Source: a virus
Length of the DNA stretch: 64,000 nucleotides
Virus record (IMG/VR): IMGVR_UViG_3300046167_000876
Direction: 5' to 3' (one strand)
Part shown: positions 2 through 21,259 of the stretch, in pieces
Position numbering within the stretch: the stretch's first letter is position 1
How the letters are laid out: every line of letters starts with the position of its first letter
Program-made: the position numbers and the translations under genes
Notes under the pieces: model-generated
Databases searched by the model: none
Told to the model about the DNA's origin: nothing
What the model saw: the letters and a program-made list of their open reading frames with translations, nothing else

Positions 2-322
2 AATTGGGTTTGGGACTTTGGAGGTATGAAAAGAGCTAAAACTAAAATAGATGGTAAGTCTCCTAAAGAATGGATGGATTATATGTTTGATCATACTTTA
101 ATTGTTGCTGAAGATGACCCATTTTTAGAAGCATTTAAGCAAATGGAAGAATCAGAAGTAGCTCAAGTTAGAGTAATCCCAGCTACTGGTGCAGAAAAAT
201 TTGCTGAATATATTTATACTAAATTAAATAGTTTTGTTCAAACTGAAACTGAAGGTAGAGTAAGAGTTACTAAAGTTAAGTTTGCGGAACATGGAAAAAA
301 TGCTGCTTATTACAGCGAGTAA
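2..322 (+). CDS. queD: 6-carboxy-5,6,7,8-tetrahydropterin synthase (QueD/PTPS), 5'-truncated by the window edge
   Basis: Frame open from base 2 (NWVWDFGGMK...); FDHT, TGAEKFAEYIY and C-terminal EHGKNAAYY motifs; adjacent to queE and folE. Confidence 0.85.
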   Translation, partial: NWVWDFGGMKRAKTKIDGKSPKEWMDYMFDHTLIVAEDDPFLEAFKQMEESEVAQVRVIPATGAEKFAEYIYTKLNSFVQTETEGRVRVTKVKFAEHGKNAAYYSE

Positions 323-331
323 GTTATAATA

Positions 332-1150
332 GTGAATGAAAAACCACTTAAAAAAATTAACAATATGCACAAACAATTGAAACGTATTGAGGATTACGAT
401 AAAAATCTTCCGATTGTAGAAGTTTATACTGCAGTCCAATCTGAAGGCTCTAGAGCAGGATACCCCACAGTAGTAATTAGAACAACAGGATGCACTCACA
501 GATGTTATTTCGGTGAAGGTGGTTGGTGTGATAGTTGGTATACAAGTATCCACCCAGAAAAAGGCCAATTTAATTTTAATAATATTATACAAAAGTATAA
601 AGATAATCCTCATATTAAAGAGATGATGCTTACTGGTGGTTCACCTACTATGCATCCCGCTTTAGTAAATGAGTTAACCCATTTTGCACATGAAAATGAT
701 ATATTCATTACTATCGAAACTGAAGGATCTCATTTCCTCCCCACTGATTATCCTATTAATCTTTTGTCAATTTCTCCTAAGTTTAGTAATAGCGTTCCCG
801 TTGTTGGTGTTGCTACTCCTCAAGGAGGAATTACAGACGAAAGGATGGTTAAAAAACATAATTCGAAAAGGTTGAATTATGAAGCAATGAAACAATCAAT
901 TGCTTACCACTCAGACTATCATATTAAACCAGTATGGGATGGTAAAGATGAAGATGCGTTAGCTGAAATTATGGATTGTTTAGAAAAACTTGAAGTATCC
1001 CAAGATAAAGTTTGGTTTATGCCCGCAGGTGATTCAAGAGAAGCATTATTTAAATCATACCCCATATTATTTGATTGGGTAAGAGATAATGGTTACAGAA
1101 TGACTTGGAGACCCCACATTATAGCATTTGAAGATCAAAGAGAAGTATAA
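332..1150 (+). CDS. queE: 7-carboxy-7-deazaguanine synthase (radical SAM)
   Basis: EVYTAVQSEG..GYPTVVIRTTGC, CTHRC-X7-CDS, LTGGSP, IETEG, SISPK, RPHI motifs; start may be ATG 365. Confidence 0.9.
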   Translation: MNEKPLKKINNMHKQLKRIEDYDKNLPIVEVYTAVQSEGSRAGYPTVVIRTTGCTHRCYFGEGGWCDSWYTSIHPEKGQFNFNNIIQKYKDNPHIKEMMLTGGSPTMHPALVNELTHFAHENDIFITIETEGSHFLPTDYPINLLSISPKFSNSVPVVGVATPQGGITDERMVKKHNSKRLNYEAMKQSIAYHSDYHIKPVWDGKDEDALAEIMDCLEKLEVSQDKVWFMPAGDSREALFKSYPILFDWVRDNGYRMTWRPHIIAFEDQREV

Positions 1151-1314
1151 TGAATAAAATTTGGAGGTATTGGGCTAGAGCATTAGGTGAAAAGGTAGGA
1201 GAAGATAATAAAAAAGCAGATACTGTAGCTTGGATTAGAACTTTTATTATAGCGCAAGCTGTAATAACAAACCTGCTTATAGCTATTAACATTTTAATAG
1301 TTTGGTTTGGATAA
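1150..1314 (+). CDS. small membrane protein (54 aa, MNKIWRYWARALGEK...), not in ORF track
   Basis: ATG overlaps queE stop (TAATG); hydrophobic C-terminal helix. Confidence 0.65.
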   Translation: MNKIWRYWARALGEKVGEDNKKADTVAWIRTFIIAQAVITNLLIAINILIVWFG

Positions 1315-1444
1315 GCAAGAAGCCCTTCGTATATTAGAGGAAATAGAAGAAAATGTTAATACCTGCTGTGCTATTACTATGGAACCAGATGATGTATTAG
1401 TATTAATAGATAAATTGAAAGAATATTTAAATGAAAAAAATTAA
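1307..1444 (+). CDS. hypothetical protein (45 aa, TTG start)
   Basis: Open frame DKQEALRILEEIEEN...YLNEKN filling the gap; codon usage typical of this genome. Confidence 0.45.
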   Translation: MDKQEALRILEEIEENVNTCCAITMEPDDVLVLIDKLKEYLNEKN

Positions 1445-1515
1445 AAATATAGTTATATTAAAAATATTTTTATTTAAATTATGGTTACAAAGAATTAAAA
1501 TTAAAATCAAGTTAA

Positions 1516-2214
1516 ATGTCAGAAAATAAACGTAGAAAAGTTCATGAAGAATTAGAAGTAGTAAAAGTAGGTTATGCGAATGGTGTTGCAGAAGGATTTC
1601 CCTTTACAGATAAAGAAAAATTAAAAATGATTGATAAAGCAGAAAAAGCTTATGGTAAGTTTTTAGATGCTTTAAAATGTGATTGGAGAGATGATCCCAA
1701 TTCAATGGAAACACCTCGACGAGTAGCTAAAGCTTATGTGAATGATCTATGGGCTGGTAGATACACAGCAATGTCCCCAATTACATCATTTCCCTCGGAT
1801 GGTTATGATGGTATTGTTATTGAACGTAACATACCATTAACTTCAATGTGTTCTCATCACCATCAAACAATTGGAGGTGTAGTTCATATTGGATATATAG
1901 CAGGAGAAGGTGGTCAAGTAATTGGTTTATCTAAATTAAACAGAATTGTAGAATTATTTGGTCGTAGAGGAGCAATACAAGAACAATTAACATCAGCAAT
2001 CCATAATGCTGTAGATAAAATTACAGAAGGAAATAAAGGTGTTATTGTTACTATAGTAGGTACTCATAATTGTGTATCTTGTAGAGGAGTTAAACATCAG
2101 GGTGCAGCAATGGTTACAACTAAAGCATCAGGTGTATTTAAAGATAATAAAAATTTAGCTCGTAAAGAATTCTTTGATAGTCTTAAAATTAATAACGGGG
2201 GACATAATATATAA
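1516..2214 (+). CDS. folE: GTP cyclohydrolase I
   Basis: ETPRRVAKAY, SMCSHH, IGLSKLNRIV, IQEQLT, HNCVSCRGV motifs. Confidence 0.95.
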   Translation: MSENKRRKVHEELEVVKVGYANGVAEGFPFTDKEKLKMIDKAEKAYGKFLDALKCDWRDDPNSMETPRRVAKAYVNDLWAGRYTAMSPITSFPSDGYDGIVIERNIPLTSMCSHHHQTIGGVVHIGYIAGEGGQVIGLSKLNRIVELFGRRGAIQEQLTSAIHNAVDKITEGNKGVIVTIVGTHNCVSCRGVKHQGAAMVTTKASGVFKDNKNLARKEFFDSLKINNGGHNI

Positions 2215-2219
2215 GAGAA

Positions 2220-2678
2220 ATGGCATTAGTAGACAAATCAGAAAATAAAATATATTTAAGTTGGGGAGATATTAATGATGCGGTTGATAACTTATGTAAC
2301 AAGATTAGACATGATCAACCCAACATAGACTCAATCCATGGTATTGCTAGGGGAGGATTAATTCCCGCAGTTTTAATTTCTCATAAATTAGGTTTACCTT
2401 GGACTGATGTTATTTTACCTAATACTTTAGTAGTAGATGATGTATGTGATTCAGGGGTAACATTAGAAAATGCACCAGGTGTTTGGACAGCAGTATTACA
2501 TTATAAACCCCACACATCATGTTTTCAACCTAGTATATGGGCAGAAATACATGAAGGTGATGAGTGGTTAATTTACCCTTGGGAAACTAAAGATTCAAAA
2601 CCTATTCAAGATTATTTAAAACCTGGAGCTAAAGAATATAGAGATAAACTAGATGAATATTATAAATCAAATGAATAA
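2220..2678 (+). CDS. purine phosphoribosyltransferase (xanthine-guanine PRT-like, type I)
   Basis: GIARGGLIPA, PRPP-binding VVDDVCDSGVTL, WLIYPWE. Confidence 0.85.
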   Translation: MALVDKSENKIYLSWGDINDAVDNLCNKIRHDQPNIDSIHGIARGGLIPAVLISHKLGLPWTDVILPNTLVVDDVCDSGVTLENAPGVWTAVLHYKPHTSCFQPSIWAEIHEGDEWLIYPWETKDSKPIQDYLKPGAKEYRDKLDEYYKSNE

Positions 2679-2680
2679 AT

Positions 2681-2878
2681 ATGGAATATTGGCAAATTAA
2701 AACTCAAAATGAATTTGAGAATGAAAGAGGTAGGATACAAAAAACAACTGAATTATATTTAGTAGTAGCAGTATCAGCAACGGATGCAGAAGCTAAGATG
2801 TACAAACATAATGAAGGTATGTCTAATTTTAGAGTTGTAGAAGTAAAGAAAACCAAATTTTTAGAAGTAATAAGCTAA
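2681..2878 (+). CDS. hypothetical protein resembling small Bacteroidota DUF4494-type proteins
   Basis: GRIQKTTELYLVVAVSATDAEAK pattern; tightly coupled to neighbours. Confidence 0.55.
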   Translation: MEYWQIKTQNEFENERGRIQKTTELYLVVAVSATDAEAKMYKHNEGMSNFRVVEVKKTKFLEVIS

Positions 2879-3417
2879 TGGGAAAACAATTAGAATTATT
2901 TAGCAAAGCCGACGTGCCCTTTGTTAATGAAGTAGAAACTTTTAACCGCACGTTCGGAAAACCAAACAATTATGAACCGACAATACCAGAAAAAAAGGAG
3001 TGGGAATTCGTATACGACTTTGTACTTGAAGAATTGGAAGAATATAGACAGGCTTGCGAAAACGGAGACATCGTGGAAGTTTTGGATGCTCTGTGTGATA
3101 TTGCTTACGTTTCCCTTGGGAACGGTACTATGTTACACGGCCTTAAAGATAAGATATGGCCTGCATATCAAGAAGTACAAGGAAGCAATATGTCGAAGTC
3201 TTGTAGCACTAAAGAGGAAGCCATGGAAACTGTCACCCTCCGCTCTAAAGAACAAGATGAGCCATGTCACTTTGAACAGATCGAAGACCGATTCGTAGTA
3301 TACAGAACACGTGATCGTAAAGTAATGAAATCAATTAATTACTATAGACCAGATTTAAAACAATTCTTTACAGGAGATGAATTACAAAAATTCCATAAAC
3401 CAGCAACCTTTATTTAA
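2878..3417 (+). CDS. MazG-superfamily nucleoside triphosphate pyrophosphohydrolase (PRA-PH-like/dUTPase-like)
   Basis: EELEEY...EVLDALCDIAYV acidic helical motif and EVQGSNMSK. Confidence 0.8.
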   Translation: MGKQLELFSKADVPFVNEVETFNRTFGKPNNYEPTIPEKKEWEFVYDFVLEELEEYRQACENGDIVEVLDALCDIAYVSLGNGTMLHGLKDKIWPAYQEVQGSNMSKSCSTKEEAMETVTLRSKEQDEPCHFEQIEDRFVVYRTRDRKVMKSINYYRPDLKQFFTGDELQKFHKPATFI

Positions 3418-5168
3418 TGTATAAAAAGTGTTATTTAGGAGATAAAATAAAACCTAATGTTTTTCAAATGCATCTTTGGGAAGAAGATGGGGGACATCAA
3501 ATTATTGAATATGAAAATGTAGCATATCAAGAATGTACTGAAGAAGAACATACACATAAAGGATTAAATGGAGAATTTTTAAAATCCCAACCTAAATGGT
3601 TTTATTCTAAAAATCCGGATTATAGTCATAAAAATACACCTGGTTTACATTTCCATGATATGAAACCTCATCAAAAATTTTTAGTTGAGCGTTATGGTGT
3701 AAATGATGTTCCTTCTAAGGGACATAGAGAAGTATTTTTTGATATTGAGTGTGAAATAGGAGGAGCATTAACTGAAGAATATATTGAAGATGCTCCTATG
3801 CCTATTACTTCTATTGCTTGGTGGGATAAACAAAAAGATTATTGGTCTATACTTATTTTAGATAAAAAAAATCAACTATCACATACTAAAACAGGAAAAA
3901 ATAAAAATAAAGAAATTATTCCTTGTACTACAGAAAATGAATTGTTAGCTAAATTTATTGAAGCTATAAGAGAGATGGATCCCGATATACTAGTAGGTTA
4001 CAACTCAGATTATTTTGATATACCTTATTTATATTATAGAATGTGTAGAACAATAGGTAAAGATTGGGCTGATCATTTATCTCCTATTGGTAAAGTAGTT
4101 TCTAAGAAAAATAATAAATATTTTTTTAAACAAAATCAATATGTAGATATTGTAGGTATTGAATCTTTAGATTATATTCGTTTACATAAAAAATATAGTT
4201 GGAAAGATGAACCAAGTTGGAAATTAGATGCAATTGGGGCCAAATATGTAGGTATGAATAAAGTTGAATATGATGGAAATTTAGATCAACTATTTGAAAC
4301 TGATATTCATAAATTTATTCAATATAACTTTGTTGATGTAGAAATTTTACAAAAGTTAGATGAAAAATTACAATATTTAGCTTTAACTAAAAACTTATCC
4401 CATAAAGGTAAGCATAATTATAGTGAAGTTTATTCTAATAGTATTACTCAAGATGGAGCAATTTCTGCTTATTTATTATCCCAAAATATAGTTCCACCTC
4501 CTAAAGAACCTTTCCCTCAAAAGAAAGATAGTTATGCAGGAGGATATCTTTTTTGCCCTAAAGCAGGATTATACAAATATATGTTTGATGAAGATTTAAC
4601 ATCGTTATACCCATCTATAATTATGTCAATTAACATTGGTAAAGAAACATTCGTGGGTCGTATTATAGATGCAGATGACCGTAATAATAGATTGGGTCTT
4701 AACGATTTAAAAGAACGTGACCCCGAAGAAAAATTATTAGTAGAAAATGCAAAACGAAAACAAACCTATGTTAATGCTGGTAGGTTAGTTGAAATGATCA
4801 AACAAAATGATTTAGCAGTAGCGGCTAATGGTTCAATGTTTAGAACAGATAAAGAAGCAGTATTATCCACTATACTTAAAAAATGGTTTAAGGAGCGTGT
4901 TATTTATAAAAATGCAATGAAAAAAGCATATAAAGAAGGAAACAAAGAATTAGGTGAATATAATCATTTAATGCAATACACAATGAAAATTCTTTTAAAT
5001 TCATTGTATGGTGCAACTGCATTACCTTCATTTAGGTATGGTATGAATTTCCAAACCCTAAGTGAAGCAATTACATTATCAGGACACAGAATAATCCAAG
5101 AATCAGCCCTTTGTGCTAATAGACATATGAATAAAGTTATGCGAGGGGAATTAAAATTAGAAATATGA
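3417..5168 (+). CDS. family B DNA polymerase, N-terminal gene (3'-5' exonuclease plus palm motifs A and B)
   Basis: FDIEC (ExoI), GYNSDYFDIPY (ExoII), YNFVDV (ExoIII), YAGG, DLTSLYPSII (motif A), KILLNSLYG (motif B); ends before motif C. Confidence 0.92.
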   Translation: MYKKCYLGDKIKPNVFQMHLWEEDGGHQIIEYENVAYQECTEEEHTHKGLNGEFLKSQPKWFYSKNPDYSHKNTPGLHFHDMKPHQKFLVERYGVNDVPSKGHREVFFDIECEIGGALTEEYIEDAPMPITSIAWWDKQKDYWSILILDKKNQLSHTKTGKNKNKEIIPCTTENELLAKFIEAIREMDPDILVGYNSDYFDIPYLYYRMCRTIGKDWADHLSPIGKVVSKKNNKYFFKQNQYVDIVGIESLDYIRLHKKYSWKDEPSWKLDAIGAKYVGMNKVEYDGNLDQLFETDIHKFIQYNFVDVEILQKLDEKLQYLALTKNLSHKGKHNYSEVYSNSITQDGAISAYLLSQNIVPPPKEPFPQKKDSYAGGYLFCPKAGLYKYMFDEDLTSLYPSIIMSINIGKETFVGRIIDADDRNNRLGLNDLKERDPEEKLLVENAKRKQTYVNAGRLVEMIKQNDLAVAANGSMFRTDKEAVLSTILKKWFKERVIYKNAMKKAYKEGNKELGEYNHLMQYTMKILLNSLYGATALPSFRYGMNFQTLSEAITLSGHRIIQESALCANRHMNKVMRGELKLEI

Positions 5169-5429
5169 CATTAAAAAAACAATCTATTAGAAAAAATCAA
5201 CTAATTACTGTAGAAGGTAAACCTATATCTAAAGAAGAAATAATCACTAGAAGTGAAAAATGGAGTGAAATCCAAGAGAATTTTTTTAAAAAAATGCTTA
5301 AACAAGGGGGGAACATTTAAAGTAGCGGGAATAAAATATAAAGTAGAATTAATTGAAAGAAGTGATTTAGACTCTAACGGAAATAAACCAATAACTGTAC
5401 CACCATTACCAGGTGAAAGAACATTTTAA
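5165..5429 (+). CDS. hypothetical protein (~87 aa) broken by one extra G in the G6 run at 5306-5311
   Basis: MTLKKQSIRK...KMLKQGG continues as TFKVAGIKYK...GERTF* if one G is removed; ATGA overlap with the polymerase stop. Confidence 0.55.
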
Positions 5430-5431
5430 TT

Positions 5432-6127
5432 ATGATATTACAAGAGGCATTTAATTGGTATTTAAATTATAACCCAAATACTGATTCTTTAAGATCTTCT
5501 CAATTAAATAAAGTAATTGGGGAAATAGAAGATGAATTTATTAGTAATTTTGATTCTTCTAAAAAAATAATTTGTATAGAAACAGGTGCTTCCCATAATT
5601 GGAATGATGGTTGTGTTGGAGCTTTTTTTGCAAAATTATGTGAATTAACAAATGGGAAATTCTATTCTGTAGATATAAATTCTGAATTAATTGATAATAG
5701 TAAAACATTATATAATAGCTTAGGATTTACTAATATAACTCATCATATTGATGACTCAGTAAATTATTTAAAGAATACAAAAGTTATTCCTAATATAGTT
5801 CATTTGGATTCATGGGATTTAAATCTTCGAGATCCTTTTCCTAGTGCATTACATGGGTGGAATGAATTTTTAGCTATTGAAGATAAAATGCCTTTAGGGT
5901 CTCTTTTAATTATAGATGATAATTATTTTAATGGAACTTGGGTTAATTGGAAAGATAATCGTAATGATAAAGAATGGGATAGAGTAACAATTAATTATCC
6001 AATTGTAGGTAAAGGAAGTCATATTTACAGTTATGTTGAAAGTGGTAATAGTAATTGGATAAAATTAAGTAATGACCATGTTGGAACAAATGAAAAATTA
6101 GTTTATAAAAAAGTAAAATTATGTTAG
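5432..6127 (+). CDS. class I SAM-dependent methyltransferase-like protein
   Basis: ICIETG, YSVDIN, DDSVNYL, VHLDS, LIIDDN pattern of Methyltransf_24-like proteins. Confidence 0.65.
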   Translation: MILQEAFNWYLNYNPNTDSLRSSQLNKVIGEIEDEFISNFDSSKKIICIETGASHNWNDGCVGAFFAKLCELTNGKFYSVDINSELIDNSKTLYNSLGFTNITHHIDDSVNYLKNTKVIPNIVHLDSWDLNLRDPFPSALHGWNEFLAIEDKMPLGSLLIIDDNYFNGTWVNWKDNRNDKEWDRVTINYPIVGKGSHIYSYVESGNSNWIKLSNDHVGTNEKLVYKKVKLC

Positions 6128-6504
6128 TAGAAATTTCAAACGGAGAATTATTAGATAAAATTTCAATTTTAGAGTTAAAATTACTTAAAATTGAAGATGA
6201 AGAAAAACTAATAAATATTAAAAAAGAATTTGAAACATTAAACCCTTTAGTAATAGAACTATTTGAAAAGTATGATGGTCAATTACAAAATCATTATCTT
6301 GAATTAGCTAAAATTAATGGTCAACTTTGGGATATAGAAGATTGGATTAGAGATTGTGAACGTGAAAAGAGATTTGATAAAGAATTTGTAGAACTAGCCC
6401 GTTCTGTGTATATTACCAATGATAAAAGATGTGAAGTTAAAAAATTAATCAATTTAATGACCTCATCAGGATTAGTAGAAGAAAAATCATATAAAGAATA
6501 TTAA
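6121..6504 (+). CDS. DUF6165-like helical protein
   Basis: VEISNGELLDKISILELK...INGQLWDIED..R...FVELARSVYITNDKR..K..IN...EEKSY. Confidence 0.75.
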   Translation: MLVEISNGELLDKISILELKLLKIEDEEKLINIKKEFETLNPLVIELFEKYDGQLQNHYLELAKINGQLWDIEDWIRDCEREKRFDKEFVELARSVYITNDKRCEVKKLINLMTSSGLVEEKSYKEY

Positions 6505-7439
6505 TGAAACATTTAGAAGAAACACCTTGGTGGATATGTGATACAGATGATGAAAATTATTGTGCCTACGTTGATACTGATTCTAATTATTTTAATGCTG
6601 AACCTTTACTTTTTAAGTTATATCCTAATTTTGAAGAATTATCTGCAGAAAAAAAAGATGATATTTTAGAAAAGGTAGCAATGAAATATCAAGATGTAAT
6701 TAATGAAGATTATGATAGATTAGCTAAAGAGTGTTTTAATGTAACTGAACATCGACTTGAAATGAAAACTGAATGTGTTATTCGTTCAGCTTATTTTAGA
6801 GCAACTCGTCGTTATGCTCAATGGATTACTAAACAAGAAGGAATTGCTAAAGAATCTTTAGATATTAAAGGTTTGGAATTTATGAAAGCAAATTTTCCAC
6901 CTATCTTAGGATCATTTTTTAATGACATACTTCAACAGGTACTAAAAGGTGAAGAAAAATCTAGTATTTTAGATCAAATTAAAATATTTAAAAAACAAAT
7001 CTTAGATGGTACAATACCACTTACTAAACTAGGTAATCCATCAGCAGTTAAAAAATTAGAAAAATACTCGGGTAAAAATGCTAGAGCAGGAGAAATGTTT
7101 ACAGAAATACTTAAAGGAGCTCCTGCACCTGTACGTGCTACAATTCGTTATAATGATTTATTAAGGTTATGGCAATTAGATAAAAAATATAATTTAATTA
7201 CACAAGCAGATAAAGTTAAATGGATTTATTTAAGAGATAACCCTTATAAAATAGAAGCATTAGCATTTCAAGATTTTGATGTGCCTGAAAAAATTAATGA
7301 TTTTTTAAATGCTTATGCTGATAGACAAAAAGTATTTGATTCAATATTATTAAATAAATTAGAAGGATTCTTTAGTGACTTACAATGGTCATTAGATTTA
7401 AATCCTTATACAAATGCATTAGCATCTTTTGAGATATAA
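6504..7439 (+). CDS. family B DNA polymerase, C-terminal gene (motif C plus thumb)
   Basis: YVDTDS catalytic motif C, RRYA, IKGLE, GAPAPVRATIRYN. Confidence 0.92.
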   Translation: MKHLEETPWWICDTDDENYCAYVDTDSNYFNAEPLLFKLYPNFEELSAEKKDDILEKVAMKYQDVINEDYDRLAKECFNVTEHRLEMKTECVIRSAYFRATRRYAQWITKQEGIAKESLDIKGLEFMKANFPPILGSFFNDILQQVLKGEEKSSILDQIKIFKKQILDGTIPLTKLGNPSAVKKLEKYSGKNARAGEMFTEILKGAPAPVRATIRYNDLLRLWQLDKKYNLITQADKVKWIYLRDNPYKIEALAFQDFDVPEKINDFLNAYADRQKVFDSILLNKLEGFFSDLQWSLDLNPYTNALASFEI

Positions 7440-7458
7440 AATAAACTTCGTATATTAC
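7428..7458 (+). promoter_or_regulatory. Bacteroidota-type -33/-7 promoter; predicted +1 coincides with the ATG of the clamp gene
   Basis: TTTG-N19-TATATTAC with the shared TTCG-TATATT core. Confidence 0.6.
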
Positions 7459-7462
7459 AACT

Positions 7463-8185
7463 ATGGTAAATAAAACAACACTAACATCAGTTATTTCAAA
7501 ATATTATTTAAATGGTTTAAATAATCAAGTAAAATGGCGTATTAAAGATAACCAATTAACTGTTTATGCGGGTGAAAATGGTAGAGTATGTAAAGTAATA
7601 CATAATAATTTTAACCTTGAAGACTCAGAATTAGGTGTATTTGATACTCATAAACTTAGTAAATTACTTTCTATCACCAACGGTGAATTAAATATTTCAC
7701 TTGAAAAAATTAAAGCGGTTTATACTAAAATACATATCGCTGATTTAAACTTTGATTTAACTTATTCATTAGCTGATATTTTAATTTTAGGTAAAAATAC
7801 TTATTATGAAGATCCTGAAGAATTTGAAATACAAATTGATTTAACAAATGAAGATATTAATCATTTAATTAAAGCTAAAAGTGCTTTAGCTGATGTTAAT
7901 AATATGTTAATCACAAGTACCACAGATATGGATGGGACTAATATATGTGAAATTATATTTGGTGATAATACAGGATTTTCAAATAAAATTACTTATCAGC
8001 TTAGAGGTAATATTACTAAAGGAGATATTCAAATTCCTTTTGATTCAGATATATTTAAAGATATTTTAAATGCTAATAAAGATATGGAAAGTGGTACACT
8101 GAAAATATCTGAAGTAGGAATGTTAAAATTAAATTTTTCAACAACAGAAACAGAAAGTGAATACTTTATTGCAAGAAATGAGTAA
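7463..8185 (+). CDS. DNA polymerase sliding clamp (T4 gp45-like)
   Basis: 240 aa; ELGVFDTHKLSKLLS and C-terminal LKISEVGMLKLNF..EYFIA patterns; lies between the polymerase and clamp loader. Confidence 0.75.
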   Translation: MVNKTTLTSVISKYYLNGLNNQVKWRIKDNQLTVYAGENGRVCKVIHNNFNLEDSELGVFDTHKLSKLLSITNGELNISLEKIKAVYTKIHIADLNFDLTYSLADILILGKNTYYEDPEEFEIQIDLTNEDINHLIKAKSALADVNNMLITSTTDMDGTNICEIIFGDNTGFSNKITYQLRGNITKGDIQIPFDSDIFKDILNANKDMESGTLKISEVGMLKLNFSTTETESEYFIARNE

Positions 8186-8205: not shown

Positions 8206-8735
8206 ATAAAATGGAGCTAGGGCACGTGTTATGTTTAAATTAAATTAACCGAGAGCTACGGCCTCACAAAACTAAATGATATGAGTACATTATTCAATGA
8301 ACGTACACCGTTCGACTTACTATTCCGTAACTTTTTTAAAGCAGACGGATCTTTTCAACCAACAACGTTTGACAACAAACAACCTCACCCACTAGATATT
8401 TTTTACGACGAAGAAGGGCTTCACTTTGAGATTGCCTGTACTGGTCTAACTAAAAAAGATATTCAACTAGAAATAGATGGAGATCTTTTAAAAATTATCT
8501 ATGATAAACCAAAAGAAGAAGAAGATTATTCTGGTTATATCTATAAAGGATTAGCTAAACGATCTTTTAATCTAGGTTATAAAGTAGCAGCTAAATTTGA
8601 ACTTGAAAGTTTAACTGCTGGAATGAAAGATGGCTTACTTCATATTTTTATTCCAATAGCTGAATCTAAGAAGCCAAAAACAATTAAAATTCAATAATAA
8701 GTTTTATTAAAAAAGCGTGTCCTAGCGCATTTTAT
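8206..8735 (+). repeat. long-range inverted repeat flanking hsp20 (arms 8206-8227 and 8715-8735)
   Basis: ATAAAATG-GA-GCTAGGGCACGT pairs with GCGTGTCCTAGC-G-CATTTTAT (8+12 bp, two G.U pairs). Confidence 0.75.
8281..8697 (+). CDS. small heat shock protein (Hsp20/alpha-crystallin)
   Basis: PLDIF..EIACTGLTKKDIQL..GDLLKI, YIYKGLAKRSF, AGMKDGLLHIFIP, KPKTIKI. Confidence 0.92.
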   Translation: MSTLFNERTPFDLLFRNFFKADGSFQPTTFDNKQPHPLDIFYDEEGLHFEIACTGLTKKDIQLEIDGDLLKIIYDKPKEEEDYSGYIYKGLAKRSFNLGYKVAAKFELESLTAGMKDGLLHIFIPIAESKKPKTIKIQ

Positions 8736-8747
8736 TTCGTATATTAA
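8716..8747 (+). promoter_or_regulatory. -33/-7 promoter (variant -33) overlapping the 3' arm of the hsp20 duplex
   Basis: CGTG-N20-TATATTAA with the TTCGTATATT core. Confidence 0.5.
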
Positions 8748-8767
8748 CGTCTAAATAAATAAGTTAT

Positions 8768-9085
8768 ATGATAAAAAAAAGAAAGTCTATTCAGACTATT
8801 ACCGATCCCTTACTAGAACCATTCTTTATTACTAAGGACGAATACAGTTATACTGTAAAACAAAATGTGACATCTGATGCCAATCATTTTAGGGCTAAAG
8901 GTAAAGCAAAAACTTATGAAAAATCCCTATATTATTATGCTAATTTTGAACAGGCTTTACAAAAAATAGCTAAATTACAAGCTGATATTGAAGATTTTGA
9001 TAGTTTAGATGAATATATTAACAATTATACAAAAATAAGTACTAACATTAAAAATTATACAAATGGAATTAGAAGCATTGTTTGA
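8768..9085 (+). CDS. hypothetical protein
   Basis: ORF with typical codon usage, overlapping the groES start. Confidence 0.7.
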   Translation: MIKKRKSIQTITDPLLEPFFITKDEYSYTVKQNVTSDANHFRAKGKAKTYEKSLYYYANFEQALQKIAKLQADIEDFDSLDEYINNYTKISTNIKNYTNGIRSIV

Positions 9086-9374
9086 TGCCGTTATTGTAAA
9101 ACCCCAAGAAGTTGAAGAAACTACTTATGGGTCAATTATTGTGCCTGATTTAGGTAAAGATAGAAATGAGCATGGAACTGTAGTAGCAGTAGGTCCTGGT
9201 AAACCAACTGTAACTGGAACTTTTTTACCAACAACTGTAAAGGTTGGGGATAAAGTAGTTTTACCAACAGTAGGTTTTACTAAATTACAACATTTAGGAG
9301 ATGAATATTATATTGGCCCCGAAAATCAAATTTTAGCAAAAATTAACCAAACAGAGAAAAAAGAAGATGAATAA
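9063..9374 (+). CDS. groES: co-chaperonin GroES
   Basis: LFDAVIVKP, mobile loop EETTYGSIIVPD, GTVVAVGPG, VKVGDKV. Confidence 0.92.
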   Translation: MELEALFDAVIVKPQEVEETTYGSIIVPDLGKDRNEHGTVVAVGPGKPTVTGTFLPTTVKVGDKVVLPTVGFTKLQHLGDEYYIGPENQILAKINQTEKKEDE

Positions 9375-10986
9375 ACAAGTTACATTAGGTTCAAAAGCTA
9401 GAACCAATTTAGTAAAAGGAATTGATACCTTAGCTGATGCTGTAGTATCAACACTAGGACCAAATGGTCGAAATGTAGTAATAGCAAACGAAATGGGAGT
9501 TCCACAATCAACAAAAGATGGAGTTACAGTTGCTAAATCAATTAAACTAAAAGATCCTGAACAAGAATTAGGAGTACAATTAGTAAAACAAGCTGCAATT
9601 AAAACAGCTGAAAAAGCAGGTGATGGTACAACTACATCTACTTTATTAGCTCGTGAAATGGTAAAAGCAGGATTAAATGCTTTAAATAATAATGAAAATG
9701 CAGTCCAAATTAAACGTGATATTGATTCTACAGTTGAAAAAGTAGTTAACAATCTTAGAAACAATATTTCAGAAGATATCTCAGGAGAAGAACAATTAGA
9801 ACAAATTGCAACTATATCAGCAAATAATGATCCAGAAACCGGAAAATTAATTGCTACTGCTATTGACAAAGTAGGAATGGAAGGAGTTGTTCATATAGAA
9901 GAATCCCGAACAGGAGAAACATATTTGGAAACAGTAGAAGGTATGCAATTTGATAGAGGTTATAAATCCCCGTATTTTGTAACTGATAATAATACAATGA
10001 CTGCTACTTTAGATAATCCACTTATATTAATTGCGGATAGTAAAATTACTCAAGTAAAAGAATTATTACCTATTCTTGAAAGTGTTTCTTCACAAGCAAA
10101 ATCATTACTTATTATAGCAGAAGATATTGATCAAGAAGCATTAGCAACTCTTATTGTTAATAAAATGAGAGGTACTATGAAAGTATGTGCTGTAAAAGCC
10201 CCAGATTTTGGTGATAGACGTAAATTAGTTTTAGAAGATATTGCAGTCACAACAGGTGGTGTAGTATTTGATAAACAAAAAGGAATGAAAATGGATAAAT
10301 TTAGTTGGGAATGGTTTGGAGAAGCTAGAACCGCAACTATAGATAAAGAAAAGACAACACTGGTAGATGGAAAAGGAACAATTGAATCAATTGAAACACG
10401 TATTGAAGAACTACAACAACAAATTGACAAAGCAGACTCACCGTTCGAAATCGAAAAACTCCAAGAAAGACTTGCAAAATTTGTCGGAGGAGTAGCAGTT
10501 ATTCATGTAGGTGGAAATACTGAAACTGAAATGAAAGAGAAAAAAGATAGGGTTGATGATGCTTTACATGCAACAAAAGCCGCTATTGAAGAAGGTATAG
10601 TACCTGGTGGTGGAACAGCATTATTATATGCATCATCAGGATTAGAAGCTAAAACAACAGGAGCAGCTATTGTAATAGAAGCTTGTGCTAAACCCTTTAA
10701 TCAAATTTTAGTTAATGCTGGGTTTGATGAAGTTAAGGGGCAAATTTTAGCTGATAATTTAGTTAACTCTGGTAATGATACTTGGGCTGGATTTAATATT
10801 AAAAATGAAAAAACAGTTAATATGAAAGAAGCTGGTATTATCGATCCAACTAAAGTAGCAAGAACTGCATTGCAAAATGCGGCATCTGTTGCTGGTACAG
10901 TATTACTAACAGAATGTACTGTAGTAAATGAAATTACTGAGGAAAATCCTCAACAACAAGTTGATCCATCAATGATGGGTTATTAA
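9367..10986 (+). CDS. groEL: chaperonin GroEL
   Basis: TLGPNGRNV, TKDGVTVAK, AGDGTTT, GMQFDRGY, KAPDFGDRRK, GIVPGGG, GIIDPTKV. Confidence 0.97.
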   Translation: MNKQVTLGSKARTNLVKGIDTLADAVVSTLGPNGRNVVIANEMGVPQSTKDGVTVAKSIKLKDPEQELGVQLVKQAAIKTAEKAGDGTTTSTLLAREMVKAGLNALNNNENAVQIKRDIDSTVEKVVNNLRNNISEDISGEEQLEQIATISANNDPETGKLIATAIDKVGMEGVVHIEESRTGETYLETVEGMQFDRGYKSPYFVTDNNTMTATLDNPLILIADSKITQVKELLPILESVSSQAKSLLIIAEDIDQEALATLIVNKMRGTMKVCAVKAPDFGDRRKLVLEDIAVTTGGVVFDKQKGMKMDKFSWEWFGEARTATIDKEKTTLVDGKGTIESIETRIEELQQQIDKADSPFEIEKLQERLAKFVGGVAVIHVGGNTETEMKEKKDRVDDALHATKAAIEEGIVPGGGTALLYASSGLEAKTTGAAIVIEACAKPFNQILVNAGFDEVKGQILADNLVNSGNDTWAGFNIKNEKTVNMKEAGIIDPTKVARTALQNAASVAGTVLLTECTVVNEITEENPQQQVDPSMMGY

Positions 10987-13032: not shown

Positions 13033-13259
13033 CAAAAGAATTATATAATATGTTAAAAACATCTGCTGAGGCAGATAAAGCTAAAGCATTATTATCACTT
13101 GAATTACTTGGTAATAAAGCAGTAGGAATTGGAGATCACTCTACAGAAGATTTTTATAAAAATGCTGAAGAAGCACTTATAAATCTAGTTGATGCTGATG
13201 ATAGATTAGCAGCACTAAATACTTATTTTCTAGATAGTAAAGAACAAATCAATGGGTGA
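13029..13259 (+). CDS. hypothetical protein (AVGIGDH motif)
   Basis: Coupled ORF; small conserved phage-type protein. Confidence 0.7.
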   Translation: MTKELYNMLKTSAEADKAKALLSLELLGNKAVGIGDHSTEDFYKNAEEALINLVDADDRLAALNTYFLDSKEQING

Positions 13260-13731
13260 TTCAGTTAAAAAATACATGGAGAGTTTAGAAAATAAAATTA
13301 ATAGCGGGGGACATTTTGCTTCCAACGCCATCCAATTATCAAAATTTATGAGTGATAGAGAAATTATGAATGCTAAAAACGGGGTATCAACAAAATTAAG
13401 TGTACAAGTATTCGAAAAAGAATACCCTGAATTATCTAAGGAATTTAAAAAAATCCAAAAAGAAATGTATGAAATGTTTGCCCGTAAACATATGGATTAT
13501 GGTTTAAATAACATTGCTTTAGGTGGAGATATCGTTAATAACAGCGATGATAAACAATTTTCATTAACTGGGTTATGTATTAGATTAACTGACAAAATAT
13601 CACGTTTAAAAAATTTACTAATTAATGGTAGATCATTTGTTGAAGGTGAAGGTATGCAAGATACATTTATAGATATTGCTAATTATGGAATAATCGGTCT
13701 TTTAGTAGGTCGAGATAAATGGAAAAAATAG
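13252..13731 (+). CDS. DUF1599 / nucleotide-modification-associated domain protein (MazG-like fold)
   Basis: KHMDYG...IRLTDKISRLKNL...EGMQDTFIDIANYGII. Confidence 0.75.
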   Translation: MGDSVKKYMESLENKINSGGHFASNAIQLSKFMSDREIMNAKNGVSTKLSVQVFEKEYPELSKEFKKIQKEMYEMFARKHMDYGLNNIALGGDIVNNSDDKQFSLTGLCIRLTDKISRLKNLLINGRSFVEGEGMQDTFIDIANYGIIGLLVGRDKWKK

Positions 13732-13732
13732 T

Positions 13733-14707
13733 TTGGCTAAAAAACTTCCAAAAATAGTAAAAGAGATTAGAAATAATCCCCCACCACCTATTAATTATGC
13801 ATATCAAAAGAATATATCATATTCTCAGATGTCTATATTTAGAGGATGTCCTCATAGATGGAAACTTCAGTATAAAGATAAAATTAAACGATTTACATCT
13901 TCTATCCATACTGTATTTGGAACTGCTATGCATGAATCAATGCAATATTATCTAGATTATGCTTATGAAAAATCATTTGCTGCTGCTGATAGAGATATTG
14001 ATTTAAAAGAAGATTTTCAAGGTCGATATATAAGTGAATATCAAGTACAATATAGAAAGAATAATGATTCTCATTTTTCTGATGCCGTTGAAATGAGAGA
14101 ATTTTTTGAAGATGGGGTAGCTATTTTAGAATGGTTTAAGAAAAAGCGTAATAGATATTTTAGTAAAAAGGGTACATATTTAGTTGGATGTGAAATACCA
14201 ATTGTAGTAGCACCAAATAAAATGTTAAATAACGTATTATATGTGGGGTATCTTGATGTTGTAACATATTGTGAAACAACAGATACATTTAAAATAATCG
14301 ATATAAAAACAAGTACTAATGGGTGGAATGATTATTCTAAAAAAGATGAAAATAAACAATTCCAACTATTACTCTATAAACAATACTTTTCAGAACAATA
14401 TAATATACCTTTAAATAAAATTGAAATTGAGTTTTTTATTCTTAAAAGAAAGGTATTAGATCCTAATGATGAAAAGCTTATGTCACCTTATCAAGCTTAT
14501 AGGGTACAACAATTTGCACCACCAAGTGGTAAAATTAAACTATCAAGAGCAAAAAATGCTATTAATGATTTTATTAATGAATGTTTTAATTCAAGTGGTA
14601 AAATAAAAGAAGCAGATTATCCAAAATCTCCTTCTAAATGGAATTGTAATTTTTGTCCTTATGGAGAAGATAAAGAATTATGTGGAGCTAAACAACATTT
14701 TTCGTAG
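13733..14707 (+). CDS. PD-(D/E)XK exonuclease (RecB/Cas4-like, Fe-S cysteines)
   Basis: SYSQ..CP, FGTAMHE, GYLD, IIDIKT, QLLLY, CNFCPY...C; TTG start. Confidence 0.85.
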   Translation: MAKKLPKIVKEIRNNPPPPINYAYQKNISYSQMSIFRGCPHRWKLQYKDKIKRFTSSIHTVFGTAMHESMQYYLDYAYEKSFAAADRDIDLKEDFQGRYISEYQVQYRKNNDSHFSDAVEMREFFEDGVAILEWFKKKRNRYFSKKGTYLVGCEIPIVVAPNKMLNNVLYVGYLDVVTYCETTDTFKIIDIKTSTNGWNDYSKKDENKQFQLLLYKQYFSEQYNIPLNKIEIEFFILKRKVLDPNDEKLMSPYQAYRVQQFAPPSGKIKLSRAKNAINDFINECFNSSGKIKEADYPKSPSKWNCNFCPYGEDKELCGAKQHFS

Positions 14708-14755: not shown

Positions 14756-14956
14756 ATGAGTTCAACAAAAAACCAAACACTAACTAGTGTTAAAGTCCAA
14801 ACCCCTTTATTTGAGGAATTTAAAATTGAATGTGTAAAGCGTAAATTTTCATTTCAAAAACTTGCTGATCGTGCTTTGTTTTTGTATCTTACAGATGAAG
14901 ATTTTCGTAAAAAAATTACAAATCAAATTAACCTCCAAATAAAAAAGAATGGATAG
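14756..14956 (+). CDS. small DNA-binding protein (ribbon-helix-helix-like)
   Basis: LTSVKV strand followed by two helices; heads the glycosylation operon. Confidence 0.55.
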   Translation: MSSTKNQTLTSVKVQTPLFEEFKIECVKRKFSFQKLADRALFLYLTDEDFRKKITNQINLQIKKNG

Positions 14957-16397
14957 AAAATTTAGTTATATTCCCAAAGATAAACGTAAAAAAATACTTT
15001 TAATTTGTGATGATATCAGAGTACATTCAGGTGTTGCTACTGTTGCTAAAGAAATTGTAGTACATACTGCAAATCATTTTAATTGGTGTCAAATAGCAGG
15101 TGCTATTAGACATCCTGAAAAAGGAAAACAACTAGATCTATCAGATGAAACTAATAAAGTAGCAAAAATTGAAGATTCTTATGTAAAATTATTCCCTGTA
15201 GATGGTTATGGTAATGAACAGATTTTAAGAGAAATTTTAAAATTTGAAAAACCAGATGCCGTAATGTTGTTTACAGATCCAAGATATTTTGAGTTTGTTT
15301 TTAGAATGGAGGCTGAAATTAGAAAAATTTGTCCTATTATGTATCTTAATATTTGGGATGATTTACCTGCTCCTATGTATAACAGTGCTTACTATGAAGC
15401 TTGTGATTTATTAATGGGAATTTCAAAACAAACTGTAAATATTAATAAGTTAGTTTTAAAAGGAAAAGAAAAAAATAGACTATTTAAATATTTACCTCAT
15501 GGTAAAAATGAAAATATCTATTACCCTTTAACACAAGAAGAAAAATCATCAAAAGATTTTATTAACTTTAAAAAAAGTATATTTAAAAATAAAAACCCTA
15601 AATTTGTTGGTTTCTTTAACTCTAGGAATATTAGAAGAAAACAAATCCCTGATACTTTATTAGCTTTTAGAGAATTTTTATATTCATTACCTAAAGAAGA
15701 AGCTAAAGAATGTTTTCTAATATTACATACAGAAGCAGTAACTGATCATGGTACAGATCTATATAAAGTAAGAGAATATTTATTTGGAGAAGATTTTGAA
15801 GATCAAATTATATTTTCCCACCAAAAATATGATGATAGAATATTAAATTGGTTATATAATATAGCTGATGTACAACTATTAATTACATCAAATGAAGGAT
15901 GGGGATTAACAATTACTGAGGCTATTTTAGCAGGTACTCCTATTATAGCTAATACTACAGGTGGGATGCAAGATCAAATGAGATTTGTAGATAATGAAGG
16001 TAAATGGTTTGAACCGGATGAGAATGTGCCTTCTAATCATAGGGGTACATATAAAGAACATGGTGAATGGGCATTTCCAGTTTATCCAACTTCAAATTCA
16101 ATACAAGGTTCTCCTCCTACTCCTTACATTTATGATGATAGATGTTCATGGGAAGATGTTAGTAAAAGATTAAAAGAAGTATATCTTATGAATAAAGAGG
16201 AACTTCAATCTAGAGGGTTAAAAGGTAGAGAATGGGCTATAAGTAATGAAGCTGGTTTTACATCAAAACACCAGGCTGAAAGATTTGTAGAATATGTAAA
16301 TGAACTATTTGATACTTGGGAACCAAGAGAAAAATATGAAATAGTAAATGCAAATGAATATAAAGGAAAATTTTTAAACCATAAAATAATTTATTAA
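14949..16397 (+). CDS. glycosyltransferase, GT-B fold (GT4-like)
   Basis: RNIRRKQ, EGWGLTITEAILAGTPII (EX7E). Confidence 0.88.
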   Translation: MDRKFSYIPKDKRKKILLICDDIRVHSGVATVAKEIVVHTANHFNWCQIAGAIRHPEKGKQLDLSDETNKVAKIEDSYVKLFPVDGYGNEQILREILKFEKPDAVMLFTDPRYFEFVFRMEAEIRKICPIMYLNIWDDLPAPMYNSAYYEACDLLMGISKQTVNINKLVLKGKEKNRLFKYLPHGKNENIYYPLTQEEKSSKDFINFKKSIFKNKNPKFVGFFNSRNIRRKQIPDTLLAFREFLYSLPKEEAKECFLILHTEAVTDHGTDLYKVREYLFGEDFEDQIIFSHQKYDDRILNWLYNIADVQLLITSNEGWGLTITEAILAGTPIIANTTGGMQDQMRFVDNEGKWFEPDENVPSNHRGTYKEHGEWAFPVYPTSNSIQGSPPTPYIYDDRCSWEDVSKRLKEVYLMNKEELQSRGLKGREWAISNEAGFTSKHQAERFVEYVNELFDTWEPREKYEIVNANEYKGKFLNHKIIY

Positions 16398-17671
16398 TGA
16401 GTAAAACAAGTTTTGTAATAAGTTGCCCATTTGACACTTATAGTGGATATGGAGCTAGATCAAGAGATATAGTTAAAGCTATAATACAATCTGGAAAATA
16501 TGATGTAATGTTATTACCCCAGAGATGGGGATCAACTTCTTGGGGTTTTTGTGATGCACACCCTGAATGGAAGTTTTTAAATGATTTAAAAATTAATAGA
16601 TTAACTAAACGTCCTGATATTTGGATGCAAATTACAATACCTAATGAATTTCAACCAGTTGGGAGATATAATATTGGATGTACCGCAGGTATTGAAGCTG
16701 ATAAATGCAAACCAGAATGGATTGCTGGTTTAAATAAAATGGATAGGAATTTTGTGTCTTCTAAATTCACAAAAAAGATGTTTGAAGAACAAATATTTGA
16801 TCAAAAAGATAAAAAAACAAACCAAGTTATAGGAAGTATTAAATTAGAAAAACCTATAGATGTTGTATTTGAAGGTGTAGATTTAGATACATATAAACCT
16901 CTAAAAAGTACTGAATTAACTACTTTTGATTTTAGTAAAATTAAAGAATCATTTTGTTATTTATTTGTAGGACATTGGATGAAAGCAGATTTTGGTCATG
17001 ATAGAAAAAATGTTAGTTTATTAGTAAAAGCATTTTATGAAACATTTAAAAATAAAAAGAAAAAACCTGCTTTAATATTAAAATCATCTACTGGAGTAGC
17101 AGGATATATGAGTAGAGATGAAATTTTAGATAAAATTAACAAAATTAAAAAATCAGTAGATTCTAAAATTTTACCTAATATTTATGTTTTAAATGGAGAA
17201 TTTAGTGATTCTGAAATGAATGAATTATATAACCATCCTAAAGTAAAAGCAATGGTTAGTTTAACTAAAGGAGAAGGGTTTGGTAGACCATTACTAGAAT
17301 TTACTACAACAGGTAAACCTGTAATAGCTTCAGGTTGGTCTGGTCATACAGATTTTTTACATAATCAATTTTCAGTTTTAATACCTGGAGAATTAGAACC
17401 TGTACACGCCTCTGCTGCTAATAATTGGTTAATTACTGAAGCTAAATGGTTTAAACCTGATACTAGATATGTTGGAGGTTCTTTTAAAAATGTATTTGAG
17501 AAATATAAAGATTTTAGAACAAAAAGTAAAAGACAAAAATATTATACACAACAAAATTATAGTTGGAAACATATGGAAAAATTAGTTAATGAAATTTTAG
17601 ATAATAATCTTCCAGAGTTTCCTAAAGAAATGGAGCTAAAACTCCCAGAATTAAATATACCAAAATTATGA
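16397..17671 (+). CDS. glycosyltransferase, GT-B fold (GT4-like)
   Basis: SGYG, DRKN, GEGFGRPLLE...GKPVIASGWSGHTDF. Confidence 0.88.
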   Translation: MSKTSFVISCPFDTYSGYGARSRDIVKAIIQSGKYDVMLLPQRWGSTSWGFCDAHPEWKFLNDLKINRLTKRPDIWMQITIPNEFQPVGRYNIGCTAGIEADKCKPEWIAGLNKMDRNFVSSKFTKKMFEEQIFDQKDKKTNQVIGSIKLEKPIDVVFEGVDLDTYKPLKSTELTTFDFSKIKESFCYLFVGHWMKADFGHDRKNVSLLVKAFYETFKNKKKKPALILKSSTGVAGYMSRDEILDKINKIKKSVDSKILPNIYVLNGEFSDSEMNELYNHPKVKAMVSLTKGEGFGRPLLEFTTTGKPVIASGWSGHTDFLHNQFSVLIPGELEPVHASAANNWLITEAKWFKPDTRYVGGSFKNVFEKYKDFRTKSKRQKYYTQQNYSWKHMEKLVNEILDNNLPEFPKEMELKLPELNIPKL

Positions 17672-18966: not shown

Positions 18967-18968
18967 AT

Positions 18969-21258: not shown

Positions 21259-21259
21259 T

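Follow-up and report, generated by a model that had tools for sequence, protein, structure and literature searches.

A Gpt-like phosphoribosyltransferase beside phage 7-deazaguanine genes: a putative helper of DpdA3-type DNA hypermodification

Introduction

The stretch of viral DNA analyzed here (IMG/VR record IMGVR_UViG_3300046167_000876; 64,000 nucleotides, "the window") opens, at positions 2 to 7439, with the 7-deazaguanine genes queD, queE and folE, which run through genes for a 6-oxopurine phosphoribosyltransferase (PRT) and a MazG-like pyrophosphohydrolase into a split gene for a family B DNA polymerase (PolB). The question raised by this locus is what a guanine-type PRT does in such company. 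The first-pass annotation, which was made from the letters of the window, proposed a pre-replicative route in which the PRT ribosylates a deazaguanine base, the pyrophosphatase biases the nucleotide pool and the polymerase incorporates the product. We arrive at a different reading, held with moderate confidence: positions 2 to 7439 would form the downstream two-thirds of an operon for DpdA3-type hypermodification of DNA with 7-deazaguanine, which runs into the replication module. Within it, the PRT plausibly channels the guanine that DpdA3 sets free back into the GTP supply. The source phage is presumably a marine myovirus of Flavobacteriia related to Immutovirus.

Two characterized phages provide the frame for this reading. 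Essentially all deoxyguanosine (dG) in the DNA of Flavobacterium phage immuto_2-6A is replaced by a formylated 7-aminomethyl-7-deazaguanine deoxynucleoside (fdPreQ1), and the dG of Cellulophaga phage phiST is replaced by 2'-deoxy-7-deazaguanosine (dDG) (Cui et al. 2023, PMC10516641). The presumed inserting enzyme is DpdA3, a homologue of tRNA-guanine transglycosylase (TGT) that is too distant for ordinary searches; the same authors could not get it to work in E. coli and read it as a DNA transglycosylase (PMC10516641).

DpdA3 and QueC in the relatives of the window

No homologue of DpdA3, QueC, QueF, DpdN, Tmk or PolA was found in the 64-kb window by tblastn with the immuto and phiST proteins. 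The Pfam TGT profile (PF01702) does not detect DpdA3 at all, so that a negative from this profile is uninformative. Relatives of the window were retrieved via an exact 47-mer and comprise the IMG/VR contigs G001, G002 and G003 and the loci L036 and L038 from a metagenome collection; a third metagenome match, L037, is a duplicate of G001 (99.9% identity). G001 (119 kb, 73% complete) is 77-81% identical to the window, and G002 (11.5 kb) is 91-99% identical, with window position 1 corresponding to G002 9585. In all five, as well as in the IMG/VR contig L040, whose PRT is 84% identical to that of the window, a DpdA3 homologue lies 2-3 kb upstream of queD and shows 36-37% identity to immuto DpdA3 (E 1e-48 to 1e-50). 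In G002 it occupies 6683-7480 and ends about 2.1 kb before the start of the window. QueC is found between DpdA3 and QueD in all relatives tested, L040 included (G002 8232-9020, about 0.6 kb upstream of position 1; Pfam QueC E 2e-37), and is followed by a thioredoxin gene before queD.

The first-pass annotation had noted that DpdA, TGT and QueC are missing from the window and might lie upstream. The first part holds for the whole 64 kb, and in the relatives both DpdA3 and QueC are indeed located directly upstream of queD. Its premise of a DpdA-less system is therefore not supported: because the two genes precede queD in all close relatives tested, their absence is, to judge from this synteny, an effect of the window starting inside queD.

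The DpdA3 profile matches the solved bacterial DpdA (7UI4) weakly (E 0.002), and the protein is considerably smaller (~265 aa compared with 436 aa) and has no invariant cysteine. A tRNA-type TGT was not found in the relatives. The QueC of the window clade (G002 8232-9020, locus L017) and that of immuto (L001 460-1341) are without the four-cysteine zinc site, which is kept in the QueC of Brevundimonas phage MaInes and Weizmannia phage Youna2. The cysteine-less form appears functional, since immuto still makes a preQ1-derived base. QueF, DpdN, Tmk and DpdL were not found in the 73% of the genome that G001 represents, and for this reason the modified nucleoside is probably the deoxynucleoside of 7-cyano-7-deazaguanine (dPreQ0) or of 7-amido-7-deazaguanine (dADG), at a predicted occupancy that is very high, as in other DpdA3 phages.

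The phosphoribosyltransferase and its gene partners

The genomic surroundings of the PRT were surveyed in the best 80 viral (IMG/VR) loci and, as a control, the best 80 loci of prokaryotic genomes and metagenome-assembled genomes (MAGs), with deazaguanine genes sought within the retrieved flanks. FolE, QueD, QueE, QueC or DpdL is present in 67 of the 80 viral loci, several of the other 13 being cut at the PRT, and in only 5 of the 80 prokaryotic ones. Three of these five carry phage-type cluster genes on MAG contigs, and the remaining two carry a PRT-FolE fusion open reading frame (ORF) on contigs of Planctomycetaceae MAGs. No deazaguanine genes accompany the Gpt-like genes of Sphingomonadales, Actinomarina and others. 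The functional tie between PRT and 7-deazaguanine genes that the first-pass annotation supposed is borne out by this recurrence across phage lineages, which does not extend to cellular Gpt-like genes.

Among sequenced phages the PRT is rare, being detected by tblastn in only 24 of 50,697 phage records. These belong to the immuto phages, the phiST group, the Campylobacter CP220/CP21 group (where it adjoins a radical SAM gene), two Brevundimonas phages and two uncultured human-faecal phage records. All three isolate lineages shown to replace every G, that is, the immuto, phiST and CP220/CP21 groups, carry it. In Brevundimonas phage MaInes the order is QueC, QueD, QueE, a small ORF and a 266-aa protein, then PolA, ribonucleotide reductase (RNR), a dNMP kinase, FolE and PRT. 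The 266-aa protein aligns over its full length with DpdA3 and has its invariant motifs. Among isolates, DpdA3 or a DpdA3-like gene is present in each lineage that has both the PRT and que genes, which is the opposite of the co-occurrence with que genes and absence of dpdA that had been suggested as a check of the pre-replicative route.

The reverse does not hold. The PRT was not found in the complete genomes of Chryseobacterium phage MA9V-3 (QueD, QueE, FolE, DpdL, a kinase and DpdA3 present) and Youna2 (QueC, QueD, QueE, FolE, a DpdA3-like protein and PolA present), and because of these two genomes the PRT should not be an obligatory route of insertion. Judged by gene content, the insertion enzyme would be the constant of the system and the PRT a conserved, dispensable accessory.

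The partner to which the PRT is most closely coupled is FolE, the enzyme of the first step. It is the immediate neighbor of FolE in 42 of 56 loci, compared with 5 of 39 for QueE, 2 of 44 for QueD and 1 of 28 for QueC, and both PRT/FolE orders occur. Fusions of the two are found at L108 553-1686, L111 9707-10840, L154 3923-4957 and L155 7869-8903; a fusion was called when a single ORF matched both the PRT and FolE profiles or when an FolE-matching ORF spanned the PRT match. A link between PRT, deazaguanine genes and DpdA in phages was not found in the literature searched: PMC7824862 does not connect PRT and deazaguanine, and the main text of Cui et al. mentions neither a ribosyltransferase nor a kinase (PMC10516641).

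The AlphaFold2 (AF2) model of the PRT (predicted local distance difference test score, pLDDT, 88) has the Type I PRT fold with a pyrophosphate (PPi) loop and a motif for binding phosphoribosyl pyrophosphate (PRPP). Its nearest structures are the P. horikoshii enzyme 1VDM, the S. solfataricus hypoxanthine-guanine-xanthine PRT (HGXPRT) and the E. coli xanthine-guanine PRT (XGPRT; 1A95/1NUL), with template modeling (TM) scores of ~0.6-0.68. Further neighbors by sequence or structure are Yersinia XGPRT and the H. pylori xanthine-guanine-hypoxanthine PRT (XGHPRT), all of them small 6-oxopurine PRTs. The protein shares with the Gpt and archaeal enzymes the RGG PPi loop (R44 G45 G46), the DD..D.G.T PRPP motif (D73 D74 D77 G79 T81) and the W..PWE hood (W116..P120 W121 E122); the first two are invariant in 63 PRT homologues and the hood is also conserved in them. 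What sets it apart is the loss of ~21-26 residues of the flexible-loop hairpin, a feature of the window/immuto-type PRT. The spacing from RGG to DD is 24 aa compared with 45-65 aa in distant phage homologues, and 35 residues of 1VDM (50-84) match only 9 residues of the PRT (59-67), which means that the flexible catalytic loop II is absent. The NCBIfam xanthine PRT model NF006613 gives 44.6 bits, against a cut-off of 138, with a match limited to residues 6-64. The gene is also embedded in a deazaguanine operon, in contrast to the standalone Gpt genes. On the basis of the model, we regard the PRT as Gpt-like in fold and not as a Gpt equivalog.

The MazG-like enzyme and nucleotide kinases

The MazG-like protein is 72% identical to immuto gp63, and its invariant residues E51, E52, E55, D70 and D74 form acidic metal ligands on a helical bundle. 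These are features of the all-alpha superfamily of MazG, HisE, dimeric dUTPase, T4 gp56 and MazZ. Sequence searches against the PDB returned nothing useful and the fold search alone was informative. The AF2 model (pLDDT 86) is nearest to DR2231 of Deinococcus radiodurans, a MazG-like protein solved with dUMP and dUMPNPP. The likeness to this best structural match has its limits (identity 18-22%, TM ~0.55), and the phage enzyme bears a C-terminal beta hairpin and helices that DR2231 does not have. Members of the family turn up in 249 phage records, the majority without deazaguanine genes, and a trimeric dUTPase was not found in G001 or G005, a clade relative described below. A dUTPase-type or house-cleaning role is, as the model suggests, at least as likely as dGTP removal. 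The pool-biasing role that the first-pass annotation assigned to this enzyme gains no support from the spread of the family among phages without deazaguanine genes or from the proximity of the model to the dUTP-specific DR2231.

The immuto/window clusters and the phiST cluster each include an all-alpha NTP pyrophosphatase, from two unrelated families. Nucleotide kinases accompany DpdA3 in several sister clusters: in the immuto type Tmk is conserved along with DpdN and QueF, a P-loop kinase gene overlaps DpdA3 in phiST, MA9V-3 and L060, and in dDG-type clusters the genes for DpdL, a P-loop nucleotide-kinase-like ATPase and DpdA3 overlap one another as a conserved trio (MA9V-3, L139 7572-9741; phiST, L002 11348-12933). 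A nucleotide kinase was not found in the window or in G001.

Guanine recycling and its alternatives

We propose that FolE, QueD and QueE would convert GTP to 7-carboxy-7-deazaguanine (CDG), that QueC of the upstream part would convert CDG to preQ0, and that DpdA3 would exchange guanine in the phage DNA for the deazaguanine. The loop-less Gpt-like PRT would then join the freed guanine to PRPP to give GMP, refilling the GTP supply of FolE and removing the product of the exchange. The MazG-like protein would belong to the nucleotide module as a (d)NTP pyrophosphatase similar to DR2231, most likely of a dUTPase or house-cleaning type, and the split PolB would be the replicative polymerase, simply the next gene. 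The exchange frees one guanine per inserted base and one GTP is spent per deazaguanine, a loop that a guanine PRT would close. The adjacency and fusion to FolE, the constant company of DpdA3 in isolates and the existence of PRT-less DpdA3-like genomes suggest that the PRT is probably a helper linked to the beginning of the pathway. The reading that we find to fit best, at an intermediate level of confidence, is therefore salvage of guanine after DpdA exchange, which the first-pass annotation listed among its alternatives.

A number of points weigh against it. DpdA3 and QueC are known from the DNA of the relatives, the window itself beginning within queD. The PRT is without its catalytic flexible loop, which makes its activity uncertain. 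GMP is two kinase steps away from the substrate of FolE, so that the adjacency of the two genes is suggestive and not proof. Nucleotide kinases are conserved in other DpdA3 clusters, and base exchange alone would give them no role. Three larger contigs (G004, G005 and G006), all incomplete, have PRT and que genes with neither DpdA3 nor TGT detected. Complete base replacement in other phages proceeds through the dNTP pool. Lastly, DpdA3 is without biochemistry, and post-replicative exchange is itself an inference, given that DpdA3 was inactive in the E. coli trial of Cui et al.

These points give some room to the idea that guanine is replaced pre-replicatively, at the level of nucleotides, either by DpdA3 acting on dGMP or dGTP with recycling by the PRT or by the PRT making a deazaguanine nucleotide. 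Taken as a whole we consider this doubtful, and clearly less probable than guanine recycling after exchange in DNA. In the first of the two forms, the MazG-like enzyme would hydrolyze dGTP to dGMP, DpdA3 would put preQ0 in place of the guanine in dGMP (or in another guanine nucleotide), kinases would raise the product to the triphosphate for the polymerase, and the PRT would recycle guanine to GMP and thus to GTP for FolE. Such a scheme would parallel those of T4 (dCTPase, dCMP hydroxymethylase, dNMP kinase) and of the Z-genome phages (MazZ, PurZ). It would accommodate the replacement of ~100% of G in relatives that carry DpdA3 and the inactivity of DpdA3 on DNA in E. coli (both PMC10516641), its small size compared with 7UI4 and its lack of an invariant cysteine. 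The NTP pyrophosphatase in the window and immuto clusters, the unrelated MazG in phiST and the kinases conserved beside DpdA3 in the immuto-type and phiST-type clusters also argue for it, as does the position of the cluster, which abuts a polymerase gene in four lineages with different polymerase families. The 7-amido-7-deazaguanine (ADG) nucleoside has been seen in CP220-infected cells, as cited in PMC10516641. Weighing against this scheme, the kinase that it calls for was not found in the window or G001, the MazG-like model is nearest to a dUTP-specific enzyme of a family that is common without deazaguanine genes, and, to our knowledge, no TGT-family enzyme acts on free nucleotides. Cui et al. 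themselves take DpdA3 for a transglycosylase of DNA (PMC10516641). On balance, action of DpdA3 on nucleotides appears unlikely.

The second form is closer to the original proposal: a TubE/ToyH-like PRT would join preQ0 or CDG to PRPP, the ribonucleotide would be phosphorylated, reduced and incorporated, the MazG-like enzyme would remove dGTP, and DpdA3 would be a back-up or clean-up enzyme. There is a precedent in TubE, a CDG-specific PRT of tubercidin synthesis that is encoded with FolE/QueD/QueE homologues (PMC6112128), and toyocamycin clusters hold a PF00156 PRT (ToyH) with preQ0 genes (bioRxiv 10.64898/2026.04.15.718813). PRTs of these two types ribosylate CDG or preQ0. The likeness in gene context is that of a PF00156 purine-type PRT with FolE/QueD/QueE(/QueC) homologues; the difference is that those clusters lead to free nucleoside antibiotics and encode no enzyme for insertion into nucleic acid, whereas the clusters of the window's relatives carry DpdA3. 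No Streptomyces TubE- or ToyH-like locus was among the best 80 prokaryotic relatives of the PRT. The specific association of the phage PRT with que genes is consistent with such an activity, and the 2-amino-6-oxo edge recognized by a Gpt-type pocket should be retained in the 7-deazaguanines.

The three contigs with no detected DpdA3 or TGT also speak for a TubE-like PRT, even though they are only 27-84% complete. G005 (L130 2754-11545), a relative from the same clade, has ThyA directly before the order QueD-QueE-FolE-PRT-x-MazG-split PolB, x being one further gene. QueC and DpdA3 were not found anywhere in its 111 kb (65% complete), and G005 may represent a variant that is CDG-type or DpdA-less. 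On the 202-kb phage contig G006, a glutamine amidotransferase (GATase)-QueC fusion, PRT, dCMP deaminase, QueE and FolE lie in a row (L121 18424-19689 to L122 69-551). A 293-aa ORF upstream of the Gat-QueC gene was considered as a DpdA3 candidate and rejected (hhalign probability 0.2). Against a TubE-like PRT stand the DpdA3 or DpdA3-like gene of all isolate lineages with PRT and que genes, the absence of the PRT from two complete DpdA3-like phage genomes, the missing catalytic loop, and the coupling of the PRT to FolE, at the first step, rather than to the base-making QueC, QueE or DpdL. We consider this form improbable, more so than the action of DpdA3 on nucleotides.

Least probable by far is that the que genes boost the supply of queuosine precursor for host tRNA with no modification of phage DNA, as was historically proposed for phages with que genes and without DpdA (PMC6884629), given the DpdA3 of all close relatives tested, the complete DNA modification by the syntenic immuto and phiST clusters, and the tRNA-type TGT that was not found in the relatives.

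Comparison with known systems

The closest characterized system is that of immuto_2-6A (record MW353175), with the order QueD, QueE, PRT, FolE, DUF4494, NTP pyrophosphatase, DpdA, formyltransferase (DpdN), Tmk, QueF, PolA and GroES/GroEL. QueD, QueE, FolE, PRT, the DUF4494 protein and the MazG-like protein are all homologous to those of the window (55-82% identity) and lie in one co-directional block that is followed by a polymerase and GroES/GroEL. The DpdA3 of the window's relatives is 36% and their cysteine-less QueC 69% identical to the immuto proteins. The two systems differ in several respects. QueF, DpdN and Tmk were not found in the window or G001, and the predicted base is accordingly preQ0 or ADG in place of formyl-preQ1. 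DpdA3 and QueC lie upstream of QueD in the window clade and downstream of MazG in immuto, FolE precedes the PRT in the window and follows it in immuto, and the window has a split PolB where immuto has PolA.

The dDG system of phiST (FolE, QueD, QueE, DpdL, DpdA3) is more distant. Its QueD, QueE and FolE are 58-72% identical to those of the window, its DpdA3 is a distant homologue, an NTP pyrophosphatase is located inside the cluster and a polymerase follows it. A homologue of the PRT (28% identical) is found elsewhere in the phiST genome. In contrast to the window clade, phiST encodes both DpdL and a P-loop kinase, and QueC is absent from it. Its MazG is of a different family, its polymerase is Pol III alpha, and its PRT, located near RNase H and RNR, retains the loop.

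At the level of single proteins, the window QueD is 65% identical to that of immuto and 58% to that of phiST, and the full-length QueD of G002 carries the CxxxHGY motif common to the immuto, phiST and MaInes QueD. The identity of QueE is 82% to immuto and 72% to phiST, that of FolE is 61-63% to both, and the DUF4494 protein is 64% identical to immuto gp62 and found in 11 of the 80 viral PRT loci. The locus adds a new member to the DpdA3-type systems, one without the QueF/DpdN/Tmk tailoring set, with a different gene arrangement and with a split PolB.

Gene arrangement and other genes of the window

The gene run queD-queE-folE-PRT-MazG-like-polB reported by the first-pass annotation is confirmed (Table 1): all genes are present, co-directional on the + strand and tightly coupled, most junctions being overlaps or gaps of less than 10 nt. 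Its order stands, with two amendments, namely that the "small ORF" before the MazG-like gene is a conserved DUF4494 gene and that polB is split in two. A scan of the window for sigma-70 promoters and terminators was at background level and is uninformative on operon structure.

Table 1. Coordinates of the genes in positions 2 to 7439 of the window, with supporting matches and the positions at which neighboring genes meet.
Feature	Coordinates	Strand	Match or remark	Junction with next gene
QueD (6-carboxytetrahydropterin synthase)	2..322	+	5' end cut by window edge, 106 of ~154 aa; Pfam PTPS E 8.4e-07	QueD 322/QueE 332
QueE (radical SAM 7-carboxy-7-deazaguanine synthase)	332..1150	+	five QueE models are the top NCBIfam matches, all below cut-off	QueE 1150/ORF 1150
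Small ORF, 54 aa, variable accessory gene	1150..1314	+	phrog_1679 (unknown function) E 1.6e-16
Small ORF, 45 aa, putative coding	1307..1444	+	no Pfam or PHROG match
FolE (GTP cyclohydrolase I), first step from GTP	1516..2214	+	PF01227 E 2e-42; NCBIfam FolE models E 3e-41, below cut-off	FolE 2214/PRT 2220
Loop-less Gpt-like 6-oxopurine PRT, 152 aa	2220..2678	+	PF00156 E 6.7e-08	PRT 2678/DUF4494 2681
DUF4494 protein, 65 aa, between PRT and MazG-like gene	2681..2878	+	PF14902 E 3.8e-10	DUF4494 2878/MazG 2878
MazG-like all-alpha NTP pyrophosphohydrolase	2878..3417	+	PRA-PH E 2.4e-10; phrog_671 E 1e-27	MazG 3417/PolB 3417
PolB, N part: exonuclease domain, motifs A and B	3417..5168	+	PF03104, PF00136 E ~4e-21
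Three cargo ORFs between the PolB halves: 51 aa; 231 aa (phrog_24975); 127 aa (DUF6165)	5165..6504	+
PolB, C part: motif C, thumb	6504..7439	+	weak PF00136/PF20286 matches to the profile's C-terminal half

Positions 1158-1307 of the window, within the first of the two small ORFs, have no counterpart in the closely related G002. In G001 a flavodoxin gene (L018 14192-14719) is found between QueE and FolE, in place of the two small ORFs. Flavodoxin is the usual reductant of the radical SAM enzyme QueE.

Exo I-III and motifs A, B and C are all present in PolB, divided over two ORFs with the break between motifs B and C. The N part holds Exo I-III, its translation showing FFDIECE and YNSDYFD, followed by motif A (DLTSLYPS) and motif B (KILLNSLYG); motif C (YVDTDS) is found in the C part. 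The split is kept in G001 and G005 and recalls the split gp43 of some T4-like phages. The cargo between the halves differs, with three ORFs in the window, four in G001 and a single 87-aa ORF in G005. The 231-aa cargo ORF (5432-6127) and a 240-aa ORF after the polymerase (7463-8185) were considered as hidden DpdA-like genes and discarded, as only weak or unknown-function matches were obtained.

Downstream of the polymerase, the window has genes for Hsp20, GroES and GroEL (8281-10986), the GroES/GroEL pair being common to immuto, and a DUF1599 protein ("nucleotide modification associated domain 1") followed by a PD-(D/E)XK nuclease (13252-14707). A 12-kb island of sugar-nucleotide and glycosyltransferase genes (14949-27127) contains two family 1 (GT1) and three family 2 (GT2) glycosyltransferases along with NAD-dependent epimerases/dehydratases, a DegT aminotransferase, RmlD-like and RmlC-like proteins, a cytidylyltransferase and a UDP-glucose dehydrogenase. 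The window also carries a phage-borne gene for a FabH-like 3-oxoacyl-acyl carrier protein (ACP) synthase III (35496-36515) and, in its structural region, an ORF of 2445 aa (56108-63445).

Implications

In other respects an ordinary representative of a described system, this gene cluster and its relatives bring out the stripped-down guanine-type PRT as a conserved partner of the pathway, often adjacent or fused to FolE, for which the searched papers give no explanation. NTP pyrophosphatases, and nucleotide kinases in the sister clusters, travel with the pathway too. The window and its relatives further predict a clade of DpdA3 phages with preQ0 or ADG as the base, a combination that we did not find reported for flavobacterial phages.

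The only paper on DpdA3, that of Cui et al., could not reconstitute the enzyme and deduces post-replicative exchange solely from the presence of its gene. A pre-replicative route, if true, would explain the replacement of every G, and the PRT offers an experimental handle to distinguish the recycling of guanine from a route through the nucleotide pool.

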